A stretch of DNA of 64,000 nucleotides from an uncultured Acidobacteriota bacterium (GCA_963813155.1 CAWEYG010000003.1:576001-640000), one strand, 5' to 3'; positions 1,032-18,171 are shown, counted from the stretch's first letter. The notes: generated from the letters alone by a model not told the origin. A program made the numbers and translations.

Positions 1032-1037
1032 TTCACC

Positions 1038-1739
1038 TCACAGAATTGCCGAGCTTCGAAAACGGTCGGCGAGCGTTTTTCCCCCGCGCGAAAAGTCGGG
1101 GATCGTCTTGTAGGCCTCGATGCGTCGCTGAAGATCGGCGACATCGCGGGCCGAAACCGCTCTTTCCCTCAGGCTCTCGAGGACGTGAAGGTAGCCCGAA
1201 ACGTCGTAGCCCGCCAGCGAGGCGAGCCGCGCGCCGCACGCGTCGAGAGTGGAGTCGACCGCCGGCTCCGTCTCTCCCGCGGCCTCCCGCAGGCCGCCCG
1301 GCTGCTGCTCGCGGCAGATCTCCCGCGACAGCGTCACCGCCAGATCCGCTTCCGAGGACATCACGAACAGCATTCCGCGCGACAGCACGACGAATCTCCC
1401 CGGCAACGACAGGGAATAAGGCACGTCGGACTGGGTGACCGCGAACCGGTACCGAACGGAGCCGGACACCCCGCCGGCCGCCGTCCGCCCCACGAGATTC
1501 ACGTAGCGCAGAAGGCGCCCGTCGGGCGTCAGGGGGTCGCGGGCGAACAGGCTCGCCGCCATCTCCCGGCCGGCTTTTTCGACGGCGGGGTCGCCGGCGG
1601 AAGGAGTCACGGCCGGGGCGGACGAAGCCGCCGGGGCCGGCGCGATCGCTCGGCGCACGGGCTGCGGGCTCGGAGAGGCGCAGGAACCCGCCGCCGCCAG
1701 AAGGATCGCCGCCGCGAGCAATGAGAGGAGACTCCTCAC
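1038..1739 (-). CDS. M48 peptidase-like lipoprotein lacking HExxH
   Basis: C-terminal part of ORF 1038..2405; lipobox-like [36 protein letters not shown]; GTG overlaps upstream TGA. Confidence 0.7.
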
Positions 1740-2368
1740 CGAGGACCCGGTTGAAATCGTCCGACCGCCCCCGCCCGCTCGAATTCGGACTGCTCGGCCG
1801 GCGCGATGACGACGGAAAAGAGCCGGTCGACGGCGGCGAAATCTGGAGTCCGGACCGGGCCAGCCTTCCGATTGCCGGGCGACTCCGGCTCGATTTGCTT
1901 CGGCGGCTCGAAGTCCGCCGGGCCGAACGTCGCCGGGGAGGCTTCCGAGCGGCGGAACTGATAGCCGGATCCGTCCGAAAGCACGAAATTCACGGCCGCC
2001 AGGCCGGTGGAATCGTAGCGATATTCGATGCGCGCCTTCCTCTTTCCCACGGGAACGTCCACCATCAGGACCGGCCGGCCGAGGTTGTCGGTCCGGACGT
2101 TTCCCTGCGGGCTGAGCGGCGCCATGAACGCGACGGCGCCGGCCGCCTCCTCGGGCAGATCGCCGTCGGAGTACCACTGCTTTCCGTCGAACACGAGGGT
2201 CTCGCGAAACGCCTCGAGACGCAGCTTGCCGCCGAGCGACTTCACGACCACGCTCTCCCGCGGCTTTCCCGCGAAATCGCGCGACCGAAACACGAGAACC
2301 GTCGGCGAGGCGGGGTAAATACCAAAGGTCGTAAGGAACAGTGCGCCGAGGAGAGAGAGGAACCCCAT
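1736..2368 (-). CDS. Hypothetical secreted protein
   Basis: 210 aa ORF with hydrophobic N-terminus, coupled to the downstream gene by GTGA overlap. Confidence 0.7.
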
Positions 2369-2404
2369 TCGCCACAGAATAGCAAAGGCCGTCTGCTAAA
2401 CTCA

Positions 2405-3302
2405 ATGCTCTTGAGAAAAGCTCTCGAATCGACCCTCCTGGCCGGGCTCGCTCCCGCGCGGCGCGGCAAAGTGCGCGACGTCTACGATCTCGGCGACACG
2501 CTGCTCATCGTGTCGACCGACCGCGTCTCGGCCTTCGACGTCGTGCTCTCGCCGGGAATTCCCGACAAGGGGAAAATCCTGAATCAACTTTCGAACTTCT
2601 GGTTCGACGCGTTTCCCGACGTCGAAAATCACCTCATCGAAACGGACGCGGGGGAATTCCCGTCCGCGCTCGCCGCTCACCGCGAGGTGCTCGCGGGCCG
2701 GGCGGTCGTCGTGAAAAAATGCGCGGTCGTCCCCTTCGAGTGCGTCGCGCGCGGCTATCTCGCGGGCTCGGGCTACAAGGACTACGTTCGCACGGGATCG
2801 GTGTGCGGAATCCCGCTTCCCCCGGGCCTTCGGCGAAGCCGATCGCCTCCCGGAGCCGATCTTCACGCCGGCCACGAAAGCGGAAACGGGACACGACGAG
2901 AACGTGTCGTTCGAAGTCCTGGCGAATGCGCTGGGCCGGGAGCGGGCCGCCGAGCTTCGGGACAGGACCCTCTCGCTGTATGCGAGAGTCCGCGCCGCCT
3001 GTGAGGCGAAGGGAATTCTCCTTGCCGATTCGAAGATCGAGTTCGGGGAGATCGACGGGCGGCTCGTCTGGATCGACGAGGCCTTCACGCCGGATTCCTC
3101 GCGGTTCTGGCCGGCGGAGTCGTACCGGCCGGGCAGCTCCCCCGCCTCTCTCGACAAGCAGTTCATCCGGGACTGGCTCGAGGCGAGCGGGTGGAACAAG
3201 ACGCCGCCGGCGCCGACCCTCCCGCGGACGTCGTCGAAGGAACGCGAGAGCAGGTATTTCGCGGCCTTTCGGAAGATTACGGGACGCGAGCCGGAGATCT
3301 GA
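2405..3302 (+). CDS. purC: SAICAR synthetase (one frameshift near 2835)
   Basis: [32 protein letters not shown] in one frame; [41 protein letters not shown] in the next. Confidence 0.95.
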
Positions 3303-3327
3303 AGCCTCGGCCGTCCGTCCCCCTCCG

Positions 3328-3894
3328 TTATCGCTTCACCTCGTAACGAAGCTCGACCATGCCGCTTCCGTAGGCCTTGACCTCCGCCAGATGGAGGGCG
3401 ACGTCTCGATCGAGTTTCTCGAAGAATCGGATCCCGTCGCCGATCAGAATCGGCAGGATCGAGTAACGCAGTTCGTCGGCCAGCCCGAGACGAAGGCATT
3501 CGGCGGAGAGCATTCCGCCCCCAACGAACCAGATGGAGCGAAACCGGGGCCGCAGGCGCTCGTTCACGAACTGCGCGAGGTCGCCCGAGGAGAGCTCGAC
3601 GCTCTCGCGGGTTCGCGGCAGCTCGCGATGGGTGAGGACGAAAGTCGGCTTGTCGCCGTACGACCACCCGAAACCTTTCGCCTCGAAATTCAATGCGGTC
3701 TCGTAGGTTCGCGATCCCATCACGTAACAGTCGATCGTCTTCAGGAACGCCTCGACGAAGCCGGGCTCCAGCTTCTCCCCGCCCTCGAACTTGTCCGAGG
3801 TCTCGAGCCAGTCGACGCTTCCGTCCTTTCGGGCGATGAAGCCGTCGAGGCTCGCCGCCATGTGGATGGTGACGCGAGAATCAGGGTTTGTCAT
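3328..3894 (-). CDS. Dihydrofolate reductase family / RibD C-terminal domain protein
   Basis: AASLDGFIA, VMGSRTYE, WFVGGG, PILIGDGIRFF motifs. Confidence 0.9.
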   Translation of the reverse strand: MTNPDSRVTIHMAASLDGFIARKDGSVDWLETSDKFEGGEKLEPGFVEAFLKTIDCYVMGSRTYETALNFEAKGFGWSYGDKPTFVLTHRELPRTRESVELSSGDLAQFVNERLRPRFRSIWFVGGGMLSAECLRLGLADELRYSILPILIGDGIRFFEKLDRDVALHLAEVKAYGSGMVELRYEVKR

Positions 3895-3906
3895 GCGGGA
3901 GCCTGC

Positions 3907-4293
3907 TCATTGGCCGGGAGGCGGCTGCCAGAGCTCGACCTTGTTACCCTCGGGATCCATGACCCAGCCAAACTTCCCAAAATCGGATTCGTCGATCTTG
4001 TCGAGCACGCTGCAGCCTTCTTCCTTCAAGGCCTTGAGCAAGGCGTGGAGGTCTTCCACCCGGTAGTTGACCATGAAGGAAGCCGAGCTCGGGGCGAAGT
4101 GATTGCTCTCCTGCGGATCGATCAACCAGGCGGTCGTGCCGCCAACCGGCTTGCCCTCGGCGTCGACCCAATCGAAGGCAGCGCCTCCCCAGCTCTGAAC
4201 GTCGATTCCCAGGTGCCGCTTGTACCAGGCCTGCAATGCCGGAGCCTCTTTGGCCTTGAAGAAGATGCCGCCGATGCCCGTGACTCGTCTCAT
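3907..4293 (-). CDS. VOC (glyoxalase/bleomycin resistance) family protein
   Basis: RVTGIGGIFFK, FMVNYRVEDL, FGWVMDPEGNKVELWQP. Confidence 0.9.
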   Translation of the reverse strand: MRRVTGIGGIFFKAKEAPALQAWYKRHLGIDVQSWGGAAFDWVDAEGKPVGGTTAWLIDPQESNHFAPSSASFMVNYRVEDLHALLKALKEEGCSVLDKIDESDFGKFGWVMDPEGNKVELWQPPPGQ

Positions 4294-4462
4294 GTCGCCT
4301 CCTGTTCGTCGCGTGGGTGGGAGAAATGCTACCTCGAATTACTCCCGCTACAGCAACCCCATCGAGATCGACATGAATCTCGCGACGAGACTTTGAGGCT
4401 GGGAATCGTGAGAGCTCGTCAACGTCAGCCTTCCCGGCCGCTAGGGAAACGAGCGCCGCGTG

Positions 4463-6530
4463 TCACATCGCCAGCCCCACGTCGCCTTCGAGCACCGATG
4501 TCTTCAGCCGCGGACGCTCTCCGCCCTTCCAGAGTGCAGCCGTGTGTAAAACCCGATACCGGAGGGGCCCCCCGTCCGGTCTTTCACTGCGCGCGATGGG
4601 CCGCGGGATGCAGACAAACTCGGTGCGCATCTCATCGGCCGACAATTGCACCTTCGCGTAACCGTGTCCTCCCAGATCGACGAACTCGAGGTGCGGAGCC
4701 AGATCCGGGTTGGACAGCGACCGTGCGCGCTTGAGATCGAAGCTCCTGGCATATTCCAGGCTCGAGCGGACGCCGTGCTTGAGCAGCATGTTGTACGTCC
4801 AGTCGGGCTTCGCGCCGTCCGGCCGATCGGCGAGAAACAGCGGGCGCAGCGGATCGGTCTTGGACAAATTGTGCTCGGTGGCTTCCATGGTTCCTGCGCT
4901 CGAGAGCGAGGCGCCGACGAAGCTCAAGCCGACGGGATCGAATTTGCCGGGCGGCAATTGAGAAGTCGCGTAACCGGCCCAGAAGCTGTGGCGGTCTCCC
5001 GAGACGATGGCGAAGCCGGTGATCTTCGCATCCCGGATGAGGTCGTAGATCTCGGCGCGCTCGGTATAGGCCATTGCGTAATCGGGAGGGCTCATGGATG
5101 CATAAGTGTCCTTAGGCCAGGTTTCCTTGGTCAATCCAGGGGGCAGGTTCTGCGGATCGCTTCGCCCATCGAGCGCGCCTTCCGAATTGCCCCAGATCTT
5201 CCACGTGGCGGTCGACTTGCGCAGCTGATCCTTGAACCACGCTTTTTGCGTTGCGCCGAGAATGGTCTGCGGAGGCCTATCCTTCTGCGGGTTTGGGACA
5301 TGCGCATCGCCAAAGCCGACTTCGGCCGGCGGATTGCCGCCGTTGAACGCGCGACCGCCGTCGAGCACCTGCATCAAGGTTTCCGGCGACATGTCGGTGA
5401 ACTCTTCGCCGCCGAGCCTGTTGAGCGAGGGATCGCTAAACGGGTCGGCGCTGCGGTAGCTGTGCTGGTCGGTAATGATCAGATCGAGATGCTTGCCGTA
5501 GCGGAATGTGCGGTAGCCGATCAGGCTGTTGATCGCTGCGAGATTGTTCGGCTCGTCGCCAAGGCCGTTCTCGTCCCACTTCTCGATTGCGACATTCGTC
5601 ACCTGCGGGCGGATCGAAGCTTTCGAACGAGGGTCCGCTGACTTTCTTGCAGCGCGAGGGGAGGTATTCCCACCATGCCTGGTTGGCGGCGACTTTGATG
5701 TTTTGACCCGGTCGAGAGATGCCGCCAGCTTGCTGGATGCTTTGCCAGCCCTGCCACGAGAATTCGTGGTTGTCCCACATGGCGACGAACGGCCAGCGCG
5801 CGCGGGCGTCCTGGAGGTCGGGATCGGCGAGATAGCCTTTGTAAACGGCCCGATAGCCGTCGACCGTCAGCGGGAAATGAAAATGGCCAACCTGGCCCCC
5901 GTCCGGGATGCGCGCGACCTCGTAGATCGTGCGGTCGTAGCGCGTCTTCGTCTCGTCGGGATACTCGACCACCTCGTAGATGAAATCACCCAGGTGCAGA
6001 ACGAAGCCGAGCTGTTGGGCGGCGGGAGCGCGTTCATCTTCGTAAATCATCCGGCGATAGGCGTTGAGCTTGCCCTCGTTGACATCCTGACAGCTCACGA
6101 ATGTGAAGTTCACCGTTCGTGGATCGCCTGGCAGCGGCGCGGTGATCGTGCGGCCGACCCGGCTGCCGTTTCCGTCGGCGTCGGTGAACCGATACCAGTA
6201 AGCGCGCGCCGGCTTGAGTCCGCCAATCAGAACGCGCGCGGTCCAGTCCGCGGCGCTGGAGACCGGCGCCTGCGCGTGCGCAACGACTCGGCGGAAGGCC
6301 TCATCCTCGGCTACCTCGACGGTCAGGAGCTGGCGTGTGTCCTGGGCGAACGGATGCCTCGTCCACAGGATGACGCTGTGCGCATCGGGATCGCCCGAGG
6401 CGACCCCCTGGGGATAGAGATCACGCCGCTCATTCCAGTGGGCACGCGAACCTCGAGCCGGCCCGGCCCATGCGAGCGAAGCACCCATTGCGGCTGCAGA
6501 TTTGAGAAAGGATCGGCGGCTAATCTTCAT
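4463..6530 (-). CDS. phoD: Tat-exported PhoD-family alkaline phosphatase (frameshift near 5605)
   Basis: SRRSFLK Tat motif, GVASGDP, LHLGDFIYE, WDNHEF in ORF 5436..6554; continues in ORF 4463..5602 with SGDRH. Confidence 0.9.
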
Positions 6531-6698
6531 CGTCTCACTCCGTCCGGGCGGCAAGTTGCGTCACTCAGGATTCGGACGCAAGCGCCCGCCAAGACAAGTA
6601 CGTACTCTACGCTCGTAAGTTGGGGCGTTGCTGTCAGAATCCTGCGATGATAGATGGTAAGAACGCTACTACCCTAACCCCGTTTCAGACACTCGTGC

Positions 6699-7040
6699 TC
6701 AGGACTGCGGGTCGAACCCGAAGACGCGCAGCTCTTGGTCGCAGCGACAGGCCTTCGCGATGCGCGCGGCCCACGCGACGGCCTCCTCGCGCGAGGGCAG
6801 TTCGAGCACGGTGAAGCCGCCGTCAAGCGGGGGCGCCCATGGGTAGCCGCCCTCGGCGACTGCTCCGTCTGCTGCGACGAGAACGGGCGGCACGCCTTCG
6901 TCGATGCCGCCGCCGAAGACGTAGACGCCGGCGGCTTTCGCCTCGTCGATCACGGCGTGCGCGTCGCGGCCCACCGCCTCCCACTCGCCTTCGGGCACGA
7001 CCATCGCCGCGCTTGGAAAGGAGATCAGGTACTTGGCCAT
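6699..7040 (-). CDS. YciI family protein (last cassette-position gene)
   Basis: AKAAGVYVFGGG, GGFTVLELPSREEAVAWA; AGGAGG RBS; directly follows the GTTAGGC core site. Confidence 0.88.
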   Translation of the reverse strand: MAKYLISFPSAAMVVPEGEWEAVGRDAHAVIDEAKAAGVYVFGGGIDEGVPPVLVAADGAVAEGGYPWAPPLDGGFTVLELPSREEAVAWAARIAKACRCDQELRVFGFDPQS

Positions 7041-7085
7041 GGTGCTCCTCCTGGGAATTGATGGCGGTCGTGAAGCCTGTGTGCG

Positions 7086-7145
7086 GCCTAACGACGCGCT
7101 TCAGCGGTGAGCGAACCGACATCACGCTGTATGCCGGTGTTGCCG
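7086..7145 (-). repeat. attC site
   Basis: Minus strand CGGCAAC...CAGCG...CGCTGAAGCGCGTC-GTTAGGC. Confidence 0.8.
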
Positions 7146-7149
7146 CGGG

Positions 7150-7603
7150 ATTTCTCGGTCCCGTGTGAGGCCCGACCAGTACGGACGATCTCGTCGCGCT
7201 GGTGCGCCGATCGCACGAAGCCACCCCGACGCGGGCGGAATCGTTGGGGCGTGGGACGAACTCCGAAGCGCCGGGGTGCGACGGATTCGCGAGGAAGGCC
7301 GAACCCTCACGGGCGAGATCCGAACCGGCTTCGCAACTCGCTGAAGAGGCGACGGATGCCCGCGTCTGGTGCGGGATTTCGAAGTTCTCGTGGGCGAGCC
7401 GACGTTGACATCGGCGCGGGCAGTTCGGCCGAGCACTGCCAGCAGCGTTCTGGCGGCGGCATGCATCAGACGATCGGCGAAGGTGTCGTCCCGCGGCGCT
7501 CCGATTCGAGGCCTCGGCCGCGAACAGCCAATCGGCGGCCGATCCTGCTCCTTTCGGGCAAACCTTCGAGCACTGAGATAGCCTTTTCGAGCTTCGTGGT
7601 CAT
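7150..7603 (-). pseudogene. Degraded type II toxin-antitoxin cassette (small antitoxin ~7603-7380, RelE/ParE-like toxin ~7383-7150)
   Basis: Fragments across frames: MTTKLEKAISVLEGLPE; then KSRT, FLANPSHPG, SARVG, RAIG, DEIV.YW.GPH; extended -10 TGGTAAAAT upstream. Confidence 0.6.
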
Positions 7604-7639
7604 CGGACCTTGATTTTACCACCAGGCCAACCCTTCCGC

Positions 7640-7701
7640 GGCCAACGCCTTGCGCCTCAGCGGCGGAACGAAGCGACGTCCGCTGCACGCCGGCGTTTTA
7701 T
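7640..7701 (-). repeat. attC site
   Basis: Minus strand ATAAAAC-GCCGGCGTGCAGCGGACG...CCGCTGAGGCG...GTTGGCC. Confidence 0.8.
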
Positions 7702-8097
7702 GCGTGCGCGTATCCCCTCCGAAGAAGCACGATCACCGCCTGGCACTTCGCGCCGTGTCGCCGAGGCCGCGGGCTAACGCATGTTCGCGCGCTTTCTCAA
7801 CGCCTGCAATCAGATTTGGAACCGGAAAATCGACGTCTCGCGCCGTCTTCGTGAGGTCATAGGCGCGGTCAATCGCGAAGGTGAGGTGTTGTTCGACAGC
7901 TGCTGAGAGAGAGCCGGGCGGCCGTTAAAGGCTGCAAGCGCGGCCTGGCAAGAACCAGCGGCGAGCGCATTCGCGATAAGCCTGCGCGAGTCCTGCAAGG
8001 CCGCCTCACGGCGCTTGCCAAAAGTCATTCCAGCCGCGAAGCCAACCGCGAGAATGGTTGCCGCGAGCACGAAACGGGTAGGTCCGGTTCAACGCAC
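7702..8097 (-). pseudogene. Cassette ORF, hypothetical membrane-anchored protein, frameshifted
   Basis: LAATILAVGFAAG hydrophobic start (ORF 7810..8070); coding-like sequence continues in another frame up to the attC. Confidence 0.5.
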
Positions 8098-8158
8098 TCC
8101 CCACGATTCGGCGTCAGCGGTGGGGCGCAGCGACATCCGCTGCACGCGCATGTTATGC
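8098..8158 (-). repeat. attC site (R' core degenerate)
   Basis: Minus strand GCATAAC-ATGCGCGTGCAGCGGATG...CCGCTGACGCCGAATC-GTGGGG. Confidence 0.8.
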
Positions 8159-8520
8159 CCCCGCACTCTCACCATTCTCGATTCCCTTCAGGAGTTCCTG
8201 AGCAACGGCTCGGTCGTCGGTTGTCACCTGAATCTCGACCGGGCCGACGAATAGGGTTATAACTCAAGCCCGATTCGCCCCCACGCGAAGAAATCCTGAA
8301 GACCCTCATATTTGGCGAGGAACTGAATTCCGGCGTCGCGAAACACGGACTCGATGACCGGGAGAAGCGCAGCGTTTCCGGTCGTGTACACCGTGACCAG
8401 GTCGGGATGATGACCTTGCTCCTCCTCGGCCTCCGGCGCCCCCGTCACGAGAGGAACATGACACTCCGCGCACTCGGTAAAGCCCGGCCGGTATTCGTCG
8501 CCGCAATTCGGACAAATCAT
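8153..8520 (-). CDS. Cassette ORF: zinc-ribbon plus DUF2007-like (putative signal transducing) protein, frameshifted near 8260
   Basis: MICPNCGDEYRPGFTECAECHVPLV, SVFRDAGI, then GPVEIQV...AQELL ending at the TAA inside GCATAAC. Confidence 0.7.
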
Positions 8521-8790
8521 CTAGCCACGCGTCTTCAGGGACGCCGCTCCGCCGCCGACGAACCGACAGGCTGAATCCCGCAGCGTAAATGAGGAGCTTC
8601 GCCAGCGCTATGAACCGCGCGCCGCCGGGCGCGGAATTCCAGATCCAGGACCTCGTGTCTCCGAGCGCCAGCCACAGTCCCACCGGCGACGACAACCAGA
8701 CGGTGGAACACTGAATATGATTCCGCTAGGGCGACGGTTAGGAAGATAGACAGACACCGAGGGCGTGCAGACGCGAGGACCAGAACACAT
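8521..8790 (-). pseudogene. Cassette ORF, small membrane protein, frameshifted
   Basis: Hydrophobic segments PVGLWLALG and FIALAKLLIYAAGFSL; no clean full-length frame. Confidence 0.4.
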
Positions 8791-8795
8791 CACCT

Positions 8796-8857
8796 GCCTA
8801 GCACCGGCTTCAGCGGCAAGGCCGCAGGGCGACGTCCGCTGCAAGCCGATGTTCGGG
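8796..8857 (-). repeat. attC site
   Basis: Minus strand CCCGAAC-ATCGGCTTGCAGCGGACG...GCCGCTGAAGCCGGT-GCTAGGC. Confidence 0.85.
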
Positions 8858-9568
8858 CCTGCGGATTCTACAGTATTCCTCGATGGGCCGGCTCTCATGC
8901 CAGCCCTTTGCCTCTCCGAGCGCTCTGACGATGGGTCGAACAGCATACGAACGCTGTCCATGGGCGAGATAGACGCGAACGTCGAACCGAAGCGTTCGCA
9001 GGCCAGCGACAAGATCGTGGTACGTCGTGTCGTCGGTCGCGAAGTCGGCGTAGGCAAGCAGATTGAGGTTCATGGACGCCTCGCCGATACGTTCGAGCCT
9101 TCGATTCCACTGCGCCGGCGATCCACCCAGGGCCTTCGATTTTGCCTCTGCGCGCATCCGCGAGCGGTTTCCAGGGCGGCTTCGATTCCGGGCGCTTGCA
9201 CTACGAGGCCCCTCCGTCGCCCAGGCTCCTGGACCTCGGTAAGCTGGAACTCGAACACCTGGTCCGCTGCCTTCAGCCGGAAATCGACGTCTGTGTCGAG
9301 CGCATCGTTGACCACCGGCAAGGCCGCTCGGCGCCGAAGCCCGTGGGCGAAGAAGCAGGCCGGCAGCTTGCCACGCCATAGCTCGCCGAGCGAGCGACGG
9401 CAGCCGGTGCGCCGATGTTCGACGGCCTCGATTCATTCTCGATCCGGGGCGCCAGCTGCGCCGGCGACGAAGACGGCTCCGACGACCTATGGCCCTGCTA
9501 GCCTGGGCGAAAAGAAACGCAGGTCCAACGGCTGCGAGGGCGATCAGCGCAGAATTCAGACGTGACAT
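8858..9568 (-). pseudogene. Cassette ORF, hypothetical protein with several frameshifts
   Basis: Protein-like pieces in different frames: MSRLNSALIAL, DVDFRLK..FEFQLTEVQEPGRRRG, NLNLLAYADF. Confidence 0.5.
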
Positions 9569-9569
9569 A

Positions 9570-9785
9570 TCGAGTACCGGTTGAGCATCGAGGGGAAGAG
9601 GCGACCTACGGCAGCCTTTGAAACCAGCGAGGTCGGGACCGCGAGAATCGATGCGACCCCGTAGGACTGCGCAACCTTTCCGCGAAGTATGCCCAAGCGA
9701 CGGGAGTCACGACTCTCTGTCGGACCACAGCATATGCCCCAACCACGATGAGAAAGATCATGCCGCACCCTGGAACGTGGACGGG
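9570..9785 (-). pseudogene. Small hydrophobic cassette ORF, probably frameshifted
   Basis: MIFLIVVGAYAVV...VAWAYF segment directly after an attC. Confidence 0.35.
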
Positions 9786-9789
9786 CCGC

Positions 9790-9848
9790 CAGCAACGATT
9801 CGGCGTCCGCGTTGGTGCGCACGACATCGCTGCAAGGCGATGTTATGC
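9790..9848 (-). repeat. attC site
   Basis: Minus strand GCATAAC-ATCGCCTTGCAGCGATG...GACGCCGAATC-GTTGCTG. Confidence 0.75.
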
Positions 9849-10193
9849 CCGCGCGGTCGATGCATGCGATAGCTCCTTGCGGATGCTTTCCGCCAGACCT
9901 GGGAGGTTCTCAGCCAGGTGTTCGCGGCTGAACATGTTCCCCGCGAAGCCGGGGTGATTTGTGGCGCCGAAAATTTCCCGGCCATCGTGGGTGACCACGA
10001 ATTCCATGTCGGAATATTGAATCTCAAGCGATGAACCGCCGGATCGAAATGAGAGAGCGAAGCCGCCCTTGAACGACTCAGGCGCCACTATCTTGCGACC
10101 CGCCATCTTGAACCCGGAAGGGGCCAAAAACGCAAAGGCGCTGACCGTCTGCTCAGCAAGCTGTTCAACAGCGTTCATGATTCTCGCGGTCAT
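9843..10193 (-). CDS. Hypothetical cassette protein (116 aa)
   Basis: Intact ORF filling the cassette; ATG lies in the GTTATGA core and TAA in GCATAAC. Confidence 0.8.
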   Translation of the reverse strand: MTARIMNAVEQLAEQTVSAFAFLAPSGFKMAGRKIVAPESFKGGFALSFRSGGSSLEIQYSDMEFVVTHDGREIFGATNHPGFAGNMFSREHLAENLPGLAESIRKELSHASTARA

Positions 10194-10244
10194 AACGATT
10201 CGGCGTTAGCGGTGGTCGACATCCACTGCCCGCGCTTGTTGGGC
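10190..10244 (-). repeat. attC site
   Basis: Minus strand GCCCAAC...GCAGTGG...CCGCTAACGCCGAATC-GTTATGA. Confidence 0.8.
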
Positions 10245-10260
10245 GATGGTTGACCAACGA

Positions 10261-10482
10261 TCACCATCGACGACCACCGTACCAAAACACTTTCATCTCC
10301 CTCCGGCAATTTGGGCACTCATGGGTTTCTACTAGCCTCGCGTATGGATCGAACGCGAGGCCGGGCTTGGTTGCCTTTGAGGATTCAGGTGGCGAGTCAA
10401 GGTCCGGAAATGGCAACTGGATATTCTCATTGCACCAAGGACACACCACCGACCGCGCATCTTGCGTCTGCGCGGCCATCAT
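10261..10482 (-). CDS. Small zinc-ribbon cassette protein
   Basis: 73 aa ORF with CPWC...CPNC pairs between two attC sites. Confidence 0.7.
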   Translation of the reverse strand: MMAAQTQDARSVVCPWCNENIQLPFPDLDSPPESSKATKPGLAFDPYARLVETHECPNCRREMKVFWYGGRRW

Positions 10483-10487
10483 CTGTC

Positions 10488-10549
10488 GCCCAACGATTCG
10501 GCGTCAGCGGTGGAGCAAAGCGACACCGCGCTGCACGCGCGTGTTGGGT
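10488..10549 (-). repeat. attC site
   Basis: Canonical cores on minus strand: ACCCAAC...TGCAGCG...CGCTGACGCCGAATC-GTTGGGC. Confidence 0.9.
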
Positions 10550-10577
10550 CGTAGGGCTCGGTCGGTCCTTTGCTTCG

Positions 10578-11078
10578 TCACTGCCACTTTGAGGATTTCG
10601 GTGCGCTCAACAGTTCGTCAAGTAGAGATGCGACCGCACCCTCGATCTGCCCTTCCAGGTTGTCGGCCGGCGCGATTTCAATGATCGTGTGAGCCCAGGA
10701 AACGTCGCCGTGATCAAACTTCGCGGGGTGATGAAAGCTAGCCGCGACTTCGACAACGTATTGCGGTTTGCATACTGGATCCGGAACCTGCCTCCCCCAG
10801 AACTCGAGGAGTAGGGCGTGCCCAGCCCCCTTCCTGGCAATTATGCCGGCCGATCTGAGGCGTTTCGATACTCGGTCCTCGAGTGCGACCTTGAATCGCG
10901 CGGCCCCGGCCAAGTCGAACAAACCCGCACCAGGTGTTGGCACCATCTCGCCCGACCCACCGATAAAGACCTCAACGCTGACTTCGTCGACGTGGTAGAT
11001 CGGGTTTGATGGCCTTGCCGAGGTCGCCACTGCGGGCGTCGTCGCCAAAAGGCCAAAGAGCAGTGAAAGAGTCGTCAC
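10578..11078 (-). CDS. Hypothetical secreted cassette protein
   Basis: Signal-like TTLSLLFGLLATTPAVA followed by a globular domain; bounded by attC sites. Confidence 0.7.
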   Translation of the reverse strand: MTTLSLLFGLLATTPAVATSARPSNPIYHVDEVSVEVFIGGSGEMVPTPGAGLFDLAGAARFKVALEDRVSKRLRSAGIIARKGAGHALLLEFWGRQVPDPVCKPQYVVEVAASFHHPAKFDHGDVSWAHTIIEIAPADNLEGQIEGAVASLLDELLSAPKSSKWQ

Positions 11079-11090
11079 GATGCAGGCACG

Positions 11091-11220
11091 GCCCAACGAC
11101 CCGGCTTCCCGCCTCCGCGTGAAGCTTCGGCGCGGGTGACCAGCGGCAAGGCCGCAGGCCGAAGCCCCGGCCGAGCCGTAGCCTTGGCGAAGGCTGGTCC
11201 GCTGCAAGCCGATGTTCGGT
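11091..11220 (-). repeat. attC site expanded by two palindromic insertions
   Basis: Collinear with the attC at 8796-8857 except for inserts at ~11108-11140 and ~11159-11196. Confidence 0.85.
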
Positions 11221-11233
11221 GGCGACGCTTTCC

Positions 11234-11473
11234 TCATCTCGCTCGACCTATGATCAAGCCACGTATTCGAAATGCCAGCAACATTGCGAGCATCGGGCCG
11301 ACGAGTAGCAGCCCGGTCATTCCCCAGATCGCAGTATCAGACCCGTAAGGTCCGCAGATTCCGAGCAAGCCAGAGTTTGTTCCTCGACCTACGGCGATCA
11401 CAGCCCACACGTCTGCAACCATCACCAAAAGGAAGACCACGACCGCGATGCTGAGGGCCGCTGCTCTACGCAT
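11234..11473 (-). CDS. Two-TM small cassette protein
   Basis: 79 aa ORF with two hydrophobic helices between attC sites. Confidence 0.75.
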   Translation of the reverse strand: MRRAAALSIAVVVFLLVMVADVWAVIAVGRGTNSGLLGICGPYGSDTAIWGMTGLLLVGPMLAMLLAFRIRGLIIGRAR

Positions 11474-11489
11474 AGACGCTGCTCACGCC

Positions 11490-11565
11490 CCGGAACGACC
11501 CGGCTTCAGCGGCGGCGTGAGCCGCGGAGCGGCGAATCGACGTCCGCTGGAAGCCGATGTTAGCC
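11490..11565 (-). repeat. attC site
   Basis: Minus strand GGCTAAC-ATCGGCTTCCAGCGGACG...GCCGCTGAAGCCGGGTC-GTTCCGG. Confidence 0.88.
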
Positions 11566-11835
11566 GGCATGTGCCGACACCTTCCGTCTAACCCATCCAG
11601 CCAATCGGAACATCGCCCACTCGACCCCGATCGCCGCCGCGAGGAGGAGCGTGAGTGGTGCGAGGTATTGGACTACGAAGTTGAGAGCCTGGAAGCCGGA
11701 ACCGCGGGTGTAGAGCTCCGGTGAATCAGCCGCAATCTTGACCAGATGCCGCCACAAGCCGAAACAGAGGAACGCCCAAGCGACCACGGTAACCGTGACG
11801 ACAGACGCTAAGGCGAGCCGCGTCCGACGCATCAT
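11560..11835 (-). CDS. Two-TM small cassette protein
   Basis: MMRRTRLALASVV... two hydrophobic helices; stop TAA inside GGCTAAC. Confidence 0.75.
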   Translation of the reverse strand: MMRRTRLALASVVTVTVVAWAFLCFGLWRHLVKIAADSPELYTRGSGFQALNFVVQYLAPLTLLLAAAIGVEWAMFRLAGWVRRKVSAHAG

Positions 11836-11842
11836 TTCAGCC

Positions 11843-11910
11843 GCCCAACGACCGGAGTTCAGCGGCGGCGAGCCAGCGGCTCGACATCCCACTGCAACGA
11901 GAAGTCAAGT
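11843..11910 (-). repeat. attC site (R'' degenerate)
   Basis: Minus strand ACTTGAC-TTCTCGTTGCAGTGG...GCCGCTGAACTCCGGTC-GTTGGGC. Confidence 0.7.
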
Positions 11911-11918
11911 GCGTGGCG

Positions 11919-12370
11919 CTAGGCGATCGTAGCCAACTCATCAAGACCCCTCTGCGCACACGAGCGAACGAATTCGTTCGGATGATCAACGAGTTCCTGC
12001 AGCCTGAGCTCGATTTCGCGAGCGCCTAAATGATCCGCCCGTCTCTTTACAGCCGCATTCCCTAAAGACGCCGCGATTAGAGCTAGACAAGGGTCGGCGG
12101 GGATCCCTTCCCTCCGGGAAATCTCGAGAAGAATCTGAGGCTGCAGCTCGCGCGGAGAGCTGGAGGACCAAGGCAAGAGCCTCAAGGACGTCGCGCGCAT
12201 CAGCTTCGGACTCGCCGCGGCGAAATATCATGGTGTCCAAAACGGCTTCCGCACCTGCCGAGCCGGCATCGGCAATGACCCGGCGCCGAGTCTTGATCGG
12301 CCAGTGCAGACGGTCGTGGGTACGCCGCAATTGCCCCTGGATCAGCAGGGCCACGTGGCGAGTTCATCAT
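11919..12370 (-). pseudogene. First cassette-position gene, alpha-helical (HEAT-like C-terminus), frameshift near 12150
   Basis: ORF 11986..12354 N-part joins ORF 11919..12200 C-part (LQELVDHPNEFVRSCAQRGL). Confidence 0.5.
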
Positions 12371-12572
12371 GCTTCTCGATTCTACGCCGTCCTTACGCCT
12401 GCGAATATTCCCCCCTTTGCCCCTTCCTATCGCGGGGACCGGGAAACGGGGACACCGGCAGTTTCTCGAATTGTGATTTTTCGAATGCTCGATTTCGGAC
12501 CCGACTACCCCTCCTTGCAACGCGGGCAGGGGTGGGGTCGGGCCCGGAGGCCCCTCGTCTTATACTCGCCCT

Positions 12573-13466
12573 GTGAGCAGTCTCCCCGTCCTCCCCGCGC
12601 GCCCGACGCGGCTCGAGCGCCCCGAGTGGCTGAAGGTCCGGCTCTCGGCGAGCGGAGAGTTCGACGAGGTCAACTCCATGATGCGGCGGCTGAATCTCGT
12701 CACGGTCTGCGAGGAAGCCCGCTGCCCGAACATCCACGAGTGCTGGGCGCGGGAGCGCACCGCCACGTTCATGCTGCTCGGCGACGTCTGCACGCGCCAC
12801 TGCGGCTTCTGCGCCGTCGGCAAGGGAACGCCCGGCTCCGTCGACCCCGACGAGCCGCGCCGCGTCGGCGAGGCGGTCGCGGAGCTCGGCCTGAAGCACG
12901 CGGTCGTGACCTCCGTGAACCGCGACGACCTGCCCGACGGCGGAGCCGAGCAGTTCGCCGCGACGATCCGCGAGATCCGGCGGCAGAGCCCCGGGTGCGC
13001 CGTCGAGGTGCTGATCCCCGATTTCTGCGGCAACTGGGACGCCCTTCAGGTCGTGCTCGACGAGCAGCCGGAAGTCCTGAATCACAACACGGAGACGGTC
13101 CCCCGCCTCTATCGCCGCGTTCGTCCCGATGCCATTTACGAGCGCTCGCTCGAGCTGATCGCGCGGGCGGACGAATTCCGGCGGTCGGGAGCGAAGCTCC
13201 GGACGAAGTCCGGGCTCATGGCGGGCCTTGGCGAGACTTCCGAGGAGATTCTCTCGACGCTCGCGGACCTGCGGTCGCACGGGTGCGACATCGCGACCGT
13301 CGGACAGTACCTGCAGCCTTACGAGAAGCGGCTGCCGGTCGAGAAGTACTACACGCCCGGGGAATTCGCGGAGATCAAGGCCCGCGCGCAATCGCTCGGC
13401 TTTTCTCATGTCGAGTCCGGGCCGCTCGTTCGGTCGTCCTATCATGCCCGACACGCCGCTCTCTGA
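12573..13466 (+). CDS. lipA: Lipoyl synthase
   Basis: [33 protein letters not shown]. Confidence 0.97.
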
Positions 13467-13485
13467 ATTTCGAAACGGAGGACGT

Positions 13486-14220
13486 TTGAAGCTCGCACAC
13501 CTTCTCTGGATTCCCCTCTCCCTCGCCCTTCCCGTCGCCGCCGCCGTGCGGACTCCGACGAAGCCGAAACCCTTGCCCGGTCTCCCCTATCCCCCGGAGG
13601 CGAGGAAGAAGAACGTCGAAGGCAACGTCGTCCTGACCGGCGAGATCACGCCGGAAGGCAAAGTCGCCGGCCTGAAAGTGCTCGCCTCCTCCTCGCCCCT
13701 CCTGGAAAAAGCCGCGCTGACCTACGTCTCGCGGTTTACCTACTCCGGAGGAGCGACCGAGAATGGAAAGCCGATCTCGATTTGCCTCAATACCGTCGTG
13801 CACTTCGTGAAAGACCGGACCCGGCCGAAGGATCCCGTTTCGTTCCCGTCGCCCATCGTGGGAAATCTCGCTCTCTATCCCGTGCCGAAAAAGGGCAATC
13901 CCAACCCGGAAGACGAAGGCTTTCCGGTCGAGCCTGAGGACAAGGGTCTCCAGGGCGTCCTCGACCTCGACGTCCCGGGTACCTTTACCCCGAGAATCTA
14001 CTCGGTGAACGTCGTCGACGTCGGGCCCGCGGGCAAGATAACCCTGCTGCTCCAGAAGGCCGTCAAGAGCGACAAGCAGAACAAGACGGCGTCGGCCCCG
14101 TTCTTCCGCGCCATCGCCGCCTCCGACAAATCGGAAAAGGGGCTGCACACCGTCCGGGTGACGGTCGACGAGGTCATTGCGGGCGGTGGCCAGTACCGGG
14201 TCGGGTCGACGAAGAGTTGA
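13486..14220 (+). CDS. TonB C-terminal domain-containing secreted protein
   Basis: Signal peptide after GGAGG RBS/TTG; YPPEARKKNVEGNVVL. Confidence 0.75.
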   Translation: MKLAHLLWIPLSLALPVAAAVRTPTKPKPLPGLPYPPEARKKNVEGNVVLTGEITPEGKVAGLKVLASSSPLLEKAALTYVSRFTYSGGATENGKPISICLNTVVHFVKDRTRPKDPVSFPSPIVGNLALYPVPKKGNPNPEDEGFPVEPEDKGLQGVLDLDVPGTFTPRIYSVNVVDVGPAGKITLLLQKAVKSDKQNKTASAPFFRAIAASDKSEKGLHTVRVTVDEVIAGGGQYRVGSTKS

Positions 14221-14831
14221 TCCCGTTTCGGCCCGCGCCCGGCCGGGCGGTTCTGTTCGACATGGACGGCGTGCTCGTTTTCTCGACCTCGGCCTGGTTC
14301 GGCGTGTACAACGACACGCTCGCGCATTTCGGCCATCCGCGGATCTCGCGCGAGGAATTCCTCGAGATCTTCGGAAACGGCACCGAGGCTGACCGCGCGA
14401 AGTACATGCCGGAGCGCTCCGTCGCGGAAATCGACGCGGCCTACCGCCGCTTCTTCGAGGGGCGCCTCGCCGACATCACGGTCAACCCCGCCGCCGATTC
14501 GACGCTGCGCGCGCTCTCGCGCGCCGGCGCAAAGACCGCGCTCGCCACGAACACGAACCGGAAGCTCGCCGAGGCGATCCTCGGGCGGCTCGGCCTCTCG
14601 AAGCTCCTCGACGAAATGGCGTGCGCCGACGAAGCGGGAGCGGGGAAACCCGACCCCGCCGTCGTGCGGCTCGCGGCGAAGCGTCTCGGGGTGACGCTCG
14701 ACCGTTGCGTTTTCGTGGGAGATTCGATCTACGACGCGGAAGCGGCCCGCGAGGCGCCCGTGGACTTCATCGGTTTCCGGTTCGGAGAGCGTCCCCGCCG
14801 GATCGAGGAGCTTTCCGAAATCTGCGGTTGA
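14217..14831 (+). CDS. HAD family hydrolase
   Basis: FDMDGVL, KPDP, FVGDSIYD. Confidence 0.92.
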   Translation: MIPFRPAPGRAVLFDMDGVLVFSTSAWFGVYNDTLAHFGHPRISREEFLEIFGNGTEADRAKYMPERSVAEIDAAYRRFFEGRLADITVNPAADSTLRALSRAGAKTALATNTNRKLAEAILGRLGLSKLLDEMACADEAGAGKPDPAVVRLAAKRLGVTLDRCVFVGDSIYDAEAAREAPVDFIGFRFGERPRRIEELSEICG

Positions 14832-15768
14832 ACTGGCGCTCGAGCCCGTATTCCTTGACCTTGTTGTAAATCGTCTTCAACGAGAGCTCCAGCATCTCGG
14901 CGGCCTTCTTCTTGTTTCCCTTGGCGAATTCGAGCGTGCGCTGAAGCACCCGCCGCTCGACGTCCGCCATCGAATCGCCCACGCGGACGGGAACGATCTC
15001 CTGGCCGGGCGCCGCCTCCGTCGCTCCGTCCGGCCGCGCCGACGACCCGCCGAGAACGGACTGGATCGCCGTCAACCCGATCCAGGATCCCGTCGTCAGG
15101 GAGTGGGCCCGGCGAACGACGTTGCGAAGCTCCCGAACGTTTCCGGGCCATTCGTGCGCGTACATCGCTTCGAGCGCCTTCGGATCGATCGCGACGACGC
15201 CCGACCGCTCCTGCGACTCGACTTCTTCGAGGAAGAAAGCCGAGAGGGGTTCGATGTCGTCCGCGCGGGTTCTCAGCGCGGGAACGATCAGCTCTCGGGA
15301 ATTCTCCCGAAGCTCGGAAAGCAGCTTCCCGTCCCGGACGGCGGCCTCCGCCTCGCGGGTCGACGTGCACACGAGCCGCGTCCCGGATTTCTTCGCGAAA
15401 CGGAAAGCCTGCTCCTGGGATTCGAGCGGAAACCGATGGACGGCTTCCAGGATCAGCGTCCCTCCCGAAATCCCCTCGAGATCGAGACGCTCGTCCGCGC
15501 GGCGAGAGGTCGCGGGAAGGCCGCGCCGCCGGGCGAGAACGTGCAGCGCGGACGCCGCAGCCCTCTTTCCGACGCCGGGCTCTCCGACGACCAGAACGGG
15601 AAAAGCGTCGTCGGCCCAATCGAGGAGAGTCGCGAAGAGGTCCTGCATGGCGGACGATTTTCCGACGAGCCCCGCGAGGGGGCCCCCGGCCCGCGCGAGC
15701 GCCAGCCGAAGCTCTCCGAGCTCCGCTTCGAGCGCTGCGAGCCGGCCCTCCGCCGGGGACTTCTCCAC
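14767..15768 (-). CDS. Degenerate sigma54-interaction (bEBP-like) protein with Fis-type HTH
   Basis: GEPGVGK, WPGNVRELRN, C-terminal GNKKKAAEMLELSLKTIYNK; no GAFTGA. Confidence 0.85.
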   Translation of the reverse strand: MEKSPAEGRLAALEAELGELRLALARAGGPLAGLVGKSSAMQDLFATLLDWADDAFPVLVVGEPGVGKRAAASALHVLARRRGLPATSRRADERLDLEGISGGTLILEAVHRFPLESQEQAFRFAKKSGTRLVCTSTREAEAAVRDGKLLSELRENSRELIVPALRTRADDIEPLSAFFLEEVESQERSGVVAIDPKALEAMYAHEWPGNVRELRNVVRRAHSLTTGSWIGLTAIQSVLGGSSARPDGATEAAPGQEIVPVRVGDSMADVERRVLQRTLEFAKGNKKKAAEMLELSLKTIYNKVKEYGLERQFNRRFRKAPRSGGDALRTGNR

Positions 15769-15817
15769 GTCGTTTATTGTAGCGCGATTCGGCGGGAACG
15801 AGCCCCCGCCGCGAAAT

Positions 15818-16678
15818 TCATTTCGTCGCCGGCGGAACGGCTTCTTCGGTGCTCACCGAGAACTGTCGGATGTTGGAGTAGTCGAATCGAACGCGTGTGG
15901 AAGGGTTGAAGCCCATCTTCGTGACGCGGTCGCTGTCGATCTCATAGGAACGCGGCAGGGAGACCTGCCCGGGGCCGGAGGGGGGAGAGAACTCCAGGCT
16001 CATTCGGACTCGATTCGAATCCGTGCGGAATTCCATGTCCAGTCGCTCCGGAGAGGCCCCGTCCGGATAAATCGTCAGCGCGCCGGACGGGTAGTGGCGC
16101 GGCGACTTGGGGTTGAAAAGGTCCTCCGGGATGCCGAGACCGCGCACCTGGCGGAAGAGAAACTGATTTCCCTTCCGGGTCCAGTCGAAATTCTCGACGG
16201 GACCGTCGCCGAAGGCGAGCAGGACCAGCGTGAGGTTGTGCCAGTAGCATCCCGGGAGCGACTGCCCCACCGCGAGATCCACGATGCTGCGGCGCTCCGC
16301 CGCGGCCGAGAGGTGTCGCAGCCGGAAGAAATCCTCGATCTTCCGGTCCACGTCGGGCAGATTCTGCCCGTCCACCGATCGGACGAAGCGAAACTCCCAG
16401 AGCGCGGCCGGATTCTCCCCCAGGTGCGCGATCTGGTAGTCGGAGACGAGAACCCGCCGCCGCTGCACCGTTGCGTTTCCGGTCGTGTCGTTCAGGAGGG
16501 TCTGCGTGATCGTCTCGGTCGCGATGACGTTCTCGAGTTTCGAGAAATATTCGGGGATGTGCCGCGAGAAGTTCCGGATCTCGTCCGGCACGGGCGGAGG
16601 GGCGCCGACCTGAGCCGCGAGCGAGGTCGCGGCGGCGACGGACAGCAGCACCGAAAACCACCGGGACGAGGATCGCAT
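15818..16678 (-). CDS. Hypothetical secreted protein
   Basis: MRSSSRWFSVLLSVAAATSLAAQ signal; C-terminal part of ORF 15818..17929. Confidence 0.75.
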   Translation of the reverse strand: MRSSSRWFSVLLSVAAATSLAAQVGAPPPVPDEIRNFSRHIPEYFSKLENVIATETITQTLLNDTTGNATVQRRRVLVSDYQIAHLGENPAALWEFRFVRSVDGQNLPDVDRKIEDFFRLRHLSAAAERRSIVDLAVGQSLPGCYWHNLTLVLLAFGDGPVENFDWTRKGNQFLFRQVRGLGIPEDLFNPKSPRHYPSGALTIYPDGASPERLDMEFRTDSNRVRMSLEFSPPSGPGQVSLPRSYEIDSDRVTKMGFNPSTRVRFDYSNIRQFSVSTEEAVPPATK

Positions 16679-16704
16679 GGGGAGATTGTACGCCTCCGGG
16701 CCTC

Positions 16705-18171
16705 TCATTCGCCTCCCCGCGGGCCGGGCCACCCCAGCTTCGGCCAGAGGAGGTCGATTTTCCTTCGGGTCTCGGGGTCCATGACGATCTCGTCGGGCCA
16801 CCGCCGGGCGAACCCTTCGCCGGGGAGCTTGCGCGTCGCGTCGATTCCCACGTGGGAGCCGTAGCACGGCTGCCTCGACGCATGATCGAGCTCGTCGATC
16901 GGGCCCATCGCGAATTCGAAGTCGCGCTCCGGATCGATGTGGTTCAGCACTTTCCACGCGACTTCGGCGACGTTGCGAACGTCGGTATCCGCGTCGACGA
17001 CGACGATCACCTTCGTGAACATCATCTGGCCCGTGCCCCAGACCGCGTGCATCACCTTTCGCGCGTGGCCCGGGTAGCGCTTGTCGATCGACACGATCAT
17101 GAGGTTGTGAAAGACGCCCTCCACGGGCAGGTACATGTCGACGATCTCGGGAATCGTCTTCTTCACGACCGGCAGAAAGAGCCTCTCGACCGCTTCGCCC
17201 ATGAAACCGTCTTCCATGGGCGGCTTTCCGACGATCGTCGTCAGATAGACCGGGTTCTTCCGGCGAGTGACCGCCGTCACGTGGAAGACCGGGAAATCGT
17301 CGTCGAGCGAGTAGAAGCCGGTGTGGTCCCCGAACGGCCCTTCGCGGCGCCGCTCCCCCGGATCGACGTAGCCTTCCAGGACGAATTCCGCCTCCGCGGG
17401 AACGAGCAGGTCGACGGTCTTCGCCTGCACGAGAGGGACGCCCTCCTCCCGCAGAAAGCCGGCAAGGAGAAATTCGGAAATCCCGGGAGGCAGCGGGGCG
17501 ATCCCCGAAAAAACGGTCGCCGGATCGGCTCCGATGGCCGCCGCCACTTCCATTCGCCGGCCGTCGCGCTCGTAGCCGCGCGCCTGGCCGGCGCCGTCCT
17601 TGTGCTTCTGCCAGTGCATGCCGGTCGAGTTGCGGTCGTAGATCTGCATGCGGTACATGCCGACGTTCGTGCGGCCGGAGGCCGGATCGCGAGTGATCAC
17701 GAGCGGCATCGTGATGAACCGCCCGCCGTCCTGCGGCCAGCACTGGAGCGCGGGGAGGCGGGCCAGGTCGACGGCATCCCCTTCCTCGACGACCTCCTGG
17801 CAGGGCGCGTTGCGCACGGTCTTCGGAAAAATCGACGCGAGGTCGGCGAGCTTCGGCAGGGCCTTGAGCTTTCCGAGCCATCCCTCCGGCGGAGCCGGAT
17901 CGAGGAGAGCCTCGACCCGTGCGTCCCACCCGGCGAAGGATTCGATTCCGAGAGCGCGCTGCATCCTCGCGCGCGACGCGAAGAGGTTGATCGCGACCGG
18001 AAAGGAAGAACCCTCCACGTTCTCGAAGAGCAGGGCTGGCCCTCCCGATTTCACCATGCGATCGGCGATCTCCGGGATCTCGAGGATCGGAGACACGCGC
18101 TCGCCGACGGTGAGGAGATCGCCGCTCTTCCGGAGGTCCTCCAGGAAATCGGTGAGGTTTCGGAAGCTCAT
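16705..18171 (-). CDS. ubiD: UbiD-family (menaquinone biosynthesis) decarboxylase
   Basis: NVGMYRMQ, EGPFGDHTGFYS, GKPPMED, GIDATRK. Confidence 0.93.
   Translation of the reverse strand: MSFRNLTDFLEDLRKSGDLLTVGERVSPILEIPEIADRMVKSGGPALLFENVEGSSFPVAINLFASRARMQRALGIESFAGWDARVEALLDPAPPEGWLGKLKALPKLADLASIFPKTVRNAPCQEVVEEGDAVDLARLPALQCWPQDGGRFITMPLVITRDPASGRTNVGMYRMQIYDRNSTGMHWQKHKDGAGQARGYERDGRRMEVAAAIGADPATVFSGIAPLPPGISEFLLAGFLREEGVPLVQAKTVDLLVPAEAEFVLEGYVDPGERRREGPFGDHTGFYSLDDDFPVFHVTAVTRRKNPVYLTTIVGKPPMEDGFMGEAVERLFLPVVKKTIPEIVDMYLPVEGVFHNLMIVSIDKRYPGHARKVMHAVWGTGQMMFTKVIVVVDADTDVRNVAEVAWKVLNHIDPERDFEFAMGPIDELDHASRQPCYGSHVGIDATRKLPGEGFARRWPDEIVMDPETRRKIDLLWPKLGWPGPRGGE

Follow-up and report, generated by a model that had tools for sequence, protein, structure and literature searches.

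Organisation of the gene cassette array

The sequence studied is a 64,000-nucleotide stretch, hereafter the window, of a contig from an uncultured Acidobacteriota bacterium (GCA_963813155.1, CAWEYG010000003.1:576001-640000). Between a yciI-family gene and the lipoyl synthase gene lipA, the minus strand includes eleven candidates for attC, the recombination site of integron gene cassettes, which span positions 7086-11910 and are designated A to K (Table 1). The strand was read from 13200 to 6000, and the sites were trimmed to R''..R' with four bases kept outside the AAC and GTT triplets. The sites are 55-130 nt long, follow one another at start-to-start distances of 300-703 bp, and each is located 3' of a short open reading frame (ORF) of the same orientation. 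Nine of them are robust, site C is probable, and site G is doubtful. An earlier interpretation made from the DNA letters alone (the sequence-only reading) had proposed ten attC sites; the minus-strand orientation and the 55-130 nt palindromes were found as described, and the count is corrected to 11 candidates.

The segment 7086-11910 on the minus strand, together with the leader up to lipA, is assigned as an integron-type cassette array without a local integrase, i.e. a group of clustered attC sites without integron integrases (CALIN), with a probability of about 0.85. It lies in an acidobacterial chromosome, comprises about ten small gene cassettes and looks partly decayed.

The G+C content is 66% in the whole window and 62.3% in the array, as compared with 66.5% in the rest of the window. 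The G+C content at third codon positions (GC3) ranges from 0.46 to 0.74 in the cassette ORFs versus 0.76-0.89 in nine core-type genes of the window, and is 0.70 in the flanking PhoD gene. As judged by this GC3 contrast, the composition of the array is foreign. A blastn search with the whole array against 72,556 plasmids gave no match, an Rfam search at gathering thresholds gave 0 matches, and a tRNA scan gave 0 genes. The plus strand is slightly C-rich in 7 of 8 bins of GC skew, a signal too weak for an argument on the replication strand, which was dropped.

Table 1. Features of the cassette array and its borders, listed in the direction of the cassettes. R2, score (bits) and E value under the hold-out covariance model, or use of the site in training it; Arms, score (bits) with the emissions of the published Acidobacteria attC model (see text).
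Feature	Position	Strand	R2	Arms	Remarks
lipA (lipoyl synthase)	12573-13466	+			Radical_SAM and LIAS_N domains; GC3 0.89; boundary gene, divergent from the cassettes
Leader	11911-12572	-			lipA start to site A, 660 bp
Site A	11910-11843	-	18.2, E 0.009	26.9	R'' is GAC, not AAC; R' GTT kept
Cassette 1 ORF	11560-11892	-			Small hydrophobic protein; no family match
Site B	11565-11490	-	50.3, E 1e-12	29.7	TAA stop of upstream ORF inside R'' (GGCTAAC)
Cassette 2 ORF	11234-11473	-			79 aa, hydrophobic; no family match
Site C	11220-11091	-	12.3, E 0.58 (partial match only)	16.4	Probable; long, 130 nt; arms like B and H; extra internal sequence
Cassette 3 ORF	10578-11078	-			About 166 aa; signal-peptide-like N-terminus
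Site D	10549-10488	-	training	16.7	Also a training site of model R1
Cassette 4 ORF	10261-10482	-			73 aa; two CxxC pairs (zinc-ribbon-like)
Site E	10244-10190	-	training	8.3	Shortest, 55 nt; ATG of next ORF in R' (GTTATGA); also trained R1
Cassette 5 ORF	9843-10193	-			116 aa, unknown family
Site F	9848-9790	-	30.7, E 1.4e-6	10.8	TAA stop in R'' (GCATAAC)
Site G	9423-9296	-	not found		Doubtful, degenerate; attC-like left arm; right end GCG, not GTT
Site H	8857-8796	-	37.7, E 1e-8	25.7	R' is GCT, not GTT
Cassette 8 gene	8153-8520	-			Zinc-ribbon and DUF2007 protein; gene broken where the frame changes twice, near 8248-8266
Site I	8158-8098	-	training	15.0	R' is GTG, not GTT; TAA in R'' (GCATAAC)
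Site J	7701-7640	-	training	18.9	Hairpin closed by R''/R'
Site K	7145-7086	-	training	10.4	Last site of the array (R' GTTAGGC); hairpin closed by R''/R'
yciI-family gene	6699-7040	-			Directly after site K; GC3 0.87

Architecture of the attC-like sites

Integron integrases use attC sites as substrates, and recombination between two of them (attC x attC) at G|TT releases cassettes in circular form. Recombination of attC proceeds via the bottom strand, and extrahelical bases mark the strand that is recombined.

The palindromes in the window share the layout AAC, 8 nt, G, CAGCGG, loop, CCGCTG, 9-11 nt, GTT, which is the R''-L''-loop-L'-R' architecture of attC with AAC and GTT at its ends. All sites but A have the outer AAC (10 of 11), and all but G, H and I have the outer GTT (8 of 11); seven sites have both. 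The inner arms CAGCGG and CCGCTG pair with each other, and the left arm includes an unpaired base, at alignment column 16, in 9/9 aligned sites, as the sequence-only reading had noticed. A second unpaired base lies 8 nt farther on (column 24), and the published Acidobacteria attC model is unpaired at the same places. Hence the L'' arm carries the extrahelical bases expected of attC.

The MAFFT alignment of the nine short sites has a mean column identity of 64%. With the proposed structure, 76% of the alignment cells are paired overall, 85% in the L helix and 59% in the R helix, as compared with 31-52% when the same structure is slid by 1-3 columns; three pairs are changed on both sides. The AAC/GTT ends close the minimum-energy fold in five sites (D, G, H, J and K). 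That of site D is a single hairpin closed by R''/R', and that of site G is a long hairpin (z -0.85). Folded as single-stranded DNA, the hairpin of site B has a z value of -3.1, with 0 of 200 shuffles folding as well, and the other sites range from -2.1 to +0.2. In site F, the left arm is of the B/H type and the right arm of the D/I type, which results in poor pairing and in many non-standard pairs in the model alignment.

Three other approaches to the sites were set aside. An ungapped inverted-repeat finder gave 19 pairs, none of which was a full attC arm pair, the arms being bulged; a loose regular expression for the sites, which matched 104 times on the minus and 83 times on the plus strand, was too unspecific; and when B, H, J, K and A were aligned with MAFFT, the right arms were misaligned, and this alignment was not used for a model.

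Covariance models and the published attC model

A covariance model, R1, was built from the nine short sites and run without filters over the window. By construction, it gives its nine training sites 51-75 bits. Site C, on which R1 was not trained, was found at 20.8 bits (E 0.0013), and site G gave a partial match at 9389-9423 (13.7 bits, E 0.22). Beyond the array sites, R1 showed nothing at E < 0.1 in the whole window. A second, hold-out model, R2, was trained on sites D, I, J, K and E only. R2 recovered four of the six held-out sites (B, H, F and A) with E values from 1e-12 to 0.009, C and G not being recovered; outside the array nothing passed E 0.05, the best match there having 15.3 bits and E 0.07.

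Taxon-specific covariance models of attC, one of them for Acidobacteria, have been published (Ghaly et al. 2021, PMC8352920). The Acidobacteria model, as given in the supplementary model file of Ghaly et al. 2021 (PMC8352920), is based on 120 sequences and has 106 positions. Its left arm opens with a 7-base R'' that closes in an invariant AAC; 8 bases and a single unpaired one separate this from a 5-bp helix, in which A is invariant at the second position, and a 3-bp helix follows after two unpaired bases (consensus GA). The right arm mirrors the left one and ends with a well-conserved C, an invariant GTT and AGGC (Ghaly et al. 2021). The order and spacing of the boxes and the strongly conserved letters are the same in the window sites. 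In contrast, the first inner-helix pair, which is mostly A-U in the model (C and G ~16% each), is C-G in the window, and the window sites are mostly 55-76 nt long with short loops, as compared with the 106 positions of the model.

The window was scored by the emission costs of the two arms of the published model, which cover 46 of its 106 positions, no gaps being allowed inside the blocks. Ten of the 11 sites were among the top 13 minus-strand matches, nine of them with both ends at the coordinates in Table 1. Seven peaks of at least 15 bits were observed in the window, all on the minus strand and at the starts of sites A, B, C, D, H, I and J. As a control, 21 loci of related acidobacterial DNA (696,024 bases) were scored on both strands; one peak reached 15 bits, and 18 bits were never reached. 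In 20 shuffles of the window, the maxima had a mean of 12.6 bits and the highest reached 23.6 bits. The score of site F was obtained at its reported start, but the best-scoring right arm differs from the one reported. As judged by these comparisons, the sites agree with the published model in geometry and at its best-conserved positions. The observation of the sequence-only reading, an integron-type array on the minus strand, is confirmed, with 11 attC-like sites instead of ten.

Search for an integrase and the ends of the array

No Phage_integrase domain (Pfam) was found in 209 stop-to-stop frames of at least 140 aa from the whole window, in 101 frames of at least 40 aa from 6400-12600, or in 96 frames of 50-139 aa from the flanks 1-6650 and 12400-22725. 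For 6400-12600, 108 frames were listed; seven were omitted from that scan, of which six were covered by the scan of frames of at least 140 aa and one by the flank scan. Hence, the statement that the 64 kb contain no tyrosine recombinase holds for the scanned frames, and the same scans showed no insertion sequence (IS) or transposase near the array.

A complete integron would have intI, an adjacent attI and the cassette promoter Pc at the head of the array. None of this arrangement was seen, and the place of the integrase is occupied by lipA. The sequence-only reading was right that the upstream end adjoins lipA; this gene is on the plus strand and hence divergent from the cassettes. From lipA to site A, the leader shows no recognisable gene, attI or integrase remnant and no family match among frames of at least 40 aa, an attI of this clade not being recognisable by sequence. 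A weak attC-like match lies within the leader at 12270-12336 on the minus strand (12.1-12.3 bits, E 0.6-0.7 over the whole window). Its right arm is like those of B and C but ends with ATT, and it may represent a twelfth, heavily decayed site.

At the other end, the gene that follows site K looks native and is taken as flanking DNA rather than a cassette because of its high GC3 and because R1 and R2 showed no attC-like match downstream of it. The sequence-only reading had started the array at 6678 with about 11 cassettes; the terminal gene has no attC behind it.

Cassette contents

Each unit would consist of a short promoterless ORF followed by attC, and the bottom strand in single-stranded form (here the plus strand) would fold into an imperfect hairpin composed of the AAC/GTT base (R box), an unpaired spacer, the CAGCGG/CCGCTG helix (L box), extrahelical bases and a variable loop. 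A compact co-oriented ORF that ends at or in attC is present in cassettes 1-5. Promoter-like sites numbered 1 in 6.3 kb versus 1.0 expected. The ORFs of cassettes 1 and 5 have in-frame TAA stops inside R'' of B and F, respectively, and the start codon of the latter ORF is inside R' of site E. Stop codons in the TAAC core had been reported at 11560, 9843 and 8153; the first two are in frame, and that at 8153 comes into frame with the DUF2007 gene only if two frameshifts are allowed for.

No frame of the cassettes reached a curated cut-off in Pfam or NCBIfam; PADLOC gave no match, and PHROGs gave one weak match only. Out of 1.84 billion proteins, 21 representatives are related to the cassette 3 protein at E<=1e-3, three of them at <=1e-10; one of these (219 aa, 99% identity) is likely to be the protein of the window itself. 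Of 13 candidate relatives of the cassette 5 protein, seven reach E<=1e-3, none of which has a name other than 'hypothetical', and zinc-ribbon matches of the cassette 4 ORF were sub-threshold only. The expectation of novel small proteins is supported by the lack of curated Pfam or NCBIfam matches and by two proteins with only 7 and 21 relatives in large collections.

The cassette 8 gene has 15 relatives, 11 of which include DUF2007 (PF09413) and are 111-143 aa long, and it was only through these homologues that DUF2007 was recognised. In tblastn searches, three of the relatives were split over two or three window frames within 8248-8266; therefore the gene is broken, and its natural stop would be the TAA in R'' of site I. 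A protein of 63 aa that is 98% identical to part of this ORF (8260-8520), listed on a contig of 1,046,371 bp, is probably the window's own gene call, in which case the window would belong to a contig about 1.05 Mb long.

Cassettes 6, 7, 9 and 10 (F-G, G-H, I-J and J-K) have no spanning ORF. Initial assignments of cassette J-K as a broken toxin-antitoxin pair and of cassette G-H as a nuclease were withdrawn, as neither had support in Pfam, NCBIfam, PADLOC or PHROGs.

Possible decay and sequence error

Partial decay of the array is in part demonstrated, by the altered triplets (GTT at G, H and I, AAC at A), the mismatched arms of site F, the frameshifted DUF2007 gene and the four cassettes without a spanning ORF. 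Outside the array, the Pfam domains of purC (2797-2826), PhoD (5518-5645) and MscS (19398-19498) are split between two frames as well, which may reflect either assembly indels or pseudogenes, and lipA is split likewise in two related loci (L024 and L028) from metagenome-assembled genomes (MAGs). Assembly indels are therefore a live alternative to decay for the frameshifts. The changes in the AAC and GTT triplets are substitutions and not errors of the indel type.

Related lipA loci

The closest LipA matches in a genome scan were from Thermoanaerobaculia/Acidobacteriota MAGs at 72-77% identity, none being identical. This places the organism near Thermoanaerobaculia and supports the proposal of a probable acidobacterium. 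R1 at E<=1 found no site in 80 lipA loci of other genomes (1.41 Mb in total); therefore, the array is absent beside lipA in every genome sampled. In 28 of these loci (L001-L028), lipA was matched in 28/28 and the TonB-like downstream neighbour in 17/28, whereas the window's 13 other flanking proteins had no match at E<=1e-8. Because only lipA and the TonB-like neighbour were matched, these loci give no empty-site comparison.

Classification and origin of the array

CALINs as defined by Cury et al. 2016 have at least two attC sites on the same strand and no intI within 4 kb. The window has nine robust sites, one probable and one doubtful on one strand, with neighbours no more than 4 kb apart, and no integron integrase in the scanned frames of its 64 kb. 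With its clustered sites and no tyrosine recombinase domain found, the array is placed among CALINs, as had been suggested. Two other features are shared with the published CALINs, namely the lack of a recognisable intI pseudogene (95% of CALINs) and cassettes mostly without database homologues (Cury et al. 2016). The array is larger than most: 83% of the 279 CALINs in that study have fewer than six sites, and only 6.6% have more than 10 (Cury et al. 2016). The IntegronFinder 2.0 paper lists 2961 CALINs. The host also differs, being a Thermoanaerobaculia-like acidobacterium known from an assembled contig only.

Several observations weigh against the assignment as a decayed CALIN. Covariation between paired columns was not above a column-shuffle control, because the sites are close in sequence. 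Folding energy is unexceptional, only one of the 11 sites (B) beating all 200 shuffles. With the published emissions, only three sites exceed the best window shuffle, and E, F and K reach 8-11 bits. R1 and R2 derive from these very sites, and use of the published model was limited to a crude gap-free scoring of two arms. The distance to the relatives is too great for an empty site to be recognised, and no synteny was seen upstream of lipA. The term integrase-less applies to the neighbourhood only, since 64 kb of a longer contig were viewed, and the indels in the cassettes may be assembly errors instead of decay.

Most likely, the array was built by an integron integrase (IntI) from which it is now separated. 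The likeliest history would be that of a sedentary chromosomal integron whose intI/attI end was lost or split off at the lipA side. Four origins of CALINs have been listed, namely IntI-independent genesis, insertion at secondary sites, loss of intI and rearrangement (Cury et al. 2016). Loss of, or separation from, the integron platform is favoured among them because there are 11 sites and no junction evidence. An integrase acting in trans could still mobilise the cassettes that lie between intact sites (B to F, and J-K).

The same array could alternatively be the live part of a split integron, which intI and attI elsewhere in the genome serve in trans, the apparent decay being mostly assembly error. 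This is a tentative explanation, somewhat short of even odds. It would account for the seven sites that keep both AAC and GTT, is consistent with the frameshifts in purC, PhoD and MscS, and gains from the view being limited to part of the contig and from the finding that about half of CALINs are in replicons encoding IntI (Cury et al. 2016). The three substituted GTT and one substituted AAC, unlike the indel-type errors elsewhere, speak against it, as do the two arm types and poor pairing of site F and the lack of an integrase in the scanned frames of the window. An assembly at a secondary site beside lipA, by attC x attG and then attC x attC recombination with a transient or distant integrase and never a resident integron, is unlikely. 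Insertion of cassettes outside att sites, at genomic attG, has been shown experimentally and proposed as the source of single attC sites lacking integron integrases (SALINs) and of small CALINs (Loot et al., preprint). The absence of integrase remnants, IS and transposases near the array is in line with this route, and the right end, a complete attC (K) followed by native-like DNA, is as the route predicts; yet eleven sites are many for it, and no left junction can be defined.

Repeats unrelated to integrons that lie between small genes, i.e. transcription terminators or repeats like repetitive extragenic palindromes (REPs) and bacterial interspersed mosaic elements (BIMEs), are a very improbable reading of the palindromes. 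REP/BIME sequences are likewise short imperfect palindromes 3' of genes, and the location of the palindromes where co-oriented ORFs end, their unexceptional folding energy and the weak covariation among them would fit this origin. REPs are dispersed genome-wide and work with REP-associated tyrosine transposases (RAYTs). The copies in the window, in contrast, are all in one 4.8-kb array and match the attC model; R1 and R2 gave none at E<0.05 in the remaining ~59 kb, which include many intergenic regions, and none occurs in the 80 loci of other genomes. Terminator-like sites numbered 5 in the region versus 5.1 expected, with none on the cassette strand at the 3' end of a site. Furthermore, the layout and conserved positions agree with the published attC model, and the DNA between the palindromes is compositionally foreign. 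As for a genome without any integron integrase, in which an 11-site array was generated or is maintained without IntI, there is scarcely any likelihood of it. IntI-independent genesis is the first route of origin listed for CALINs and is left unexplained in the source (Cury et al. 2016); if it applied here, the array would be a natural case for studying the origin of cassettes and attC sites. The sequence-only reading had also allowed assembly or movement by another mechanism, to which nothing points.

Relation to known systems

Sedentary chromosomal integrons, such as the Vibrio cholerae superintegron and the Xanthomonas integrons, have many small, mostly unknown, co-oriented promoterless ORFs and similar attC sites, as does the array in the window. 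The latter differs in having lipA rather than intI, attI and Pc at its head, in the mean column identity of 64% between its sites and in the damage to several of them. Chromosomal attC sites of Acidobacteria are already in print (Ghaly et al. 2021, PMC8352920). A full-text literature search for Thermoanaerobaculia and integron showed nothing on integron arrays in that class, as judged by titles and the openings of abstracts.

As both CALINs and acidobacterial attC sites have been described, the array adds an example and not a concept. It is a fairly large array, on a long contig, in a poorly studied Thermoanaerobaculia-like class, and its cassette genes, about ten in number, belong to rare or unknown families. 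Undamaged attC sites lie next to damaged ones and could illustrate the fixation of cassettes in a chromosome. The natural site variants (GTT, GCT and GTG ends, mismatched arms) are a ready set for recombination assays.

Other features of the window

The yciI-family gene has 7251 relatives at E<=1e-3. The 120 matches listed are 82-99% identical to it, with Pseudomonas, Noviherbaspirillum, Geothrix and Thermoanaerobaculia as named sources. Because of such conservation across phyla, a recent horizontal spread of the bare gene is suggested by these comparisons. One copy, at 6001-6342 of its locus, is on a 1.1-Mb plasmid of Gemmatirosa kalamazoonensis and shows 94.7% protein and 91% DNA identity, the DNA similarity between the two copies ending at the ORF ends. 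The plasmid of G. kalamazoonensis holds a large integron (IntegronFinder 2.0 paper); searched with R1, the DNA up to 6 kb from the yciI homologue there gave no attC-like site.

Between the yciI-family gene and the start of PhoD, an imperfect palindrome of about 80 nt (6566-6644) has 22-nt arms that are 77% complementary and 35 nt apart. It was ruled out as attC, the AAC being near the loop rather than at the base. Farther along the window, in a single ORF of 1064 codons on the minus strand (38435-41629), Cache, HAMP and HD domains come after domains of 3-dehydroquinate synthase; either this is an uncommon fusion, or loss of a stop codon has joined two genes.

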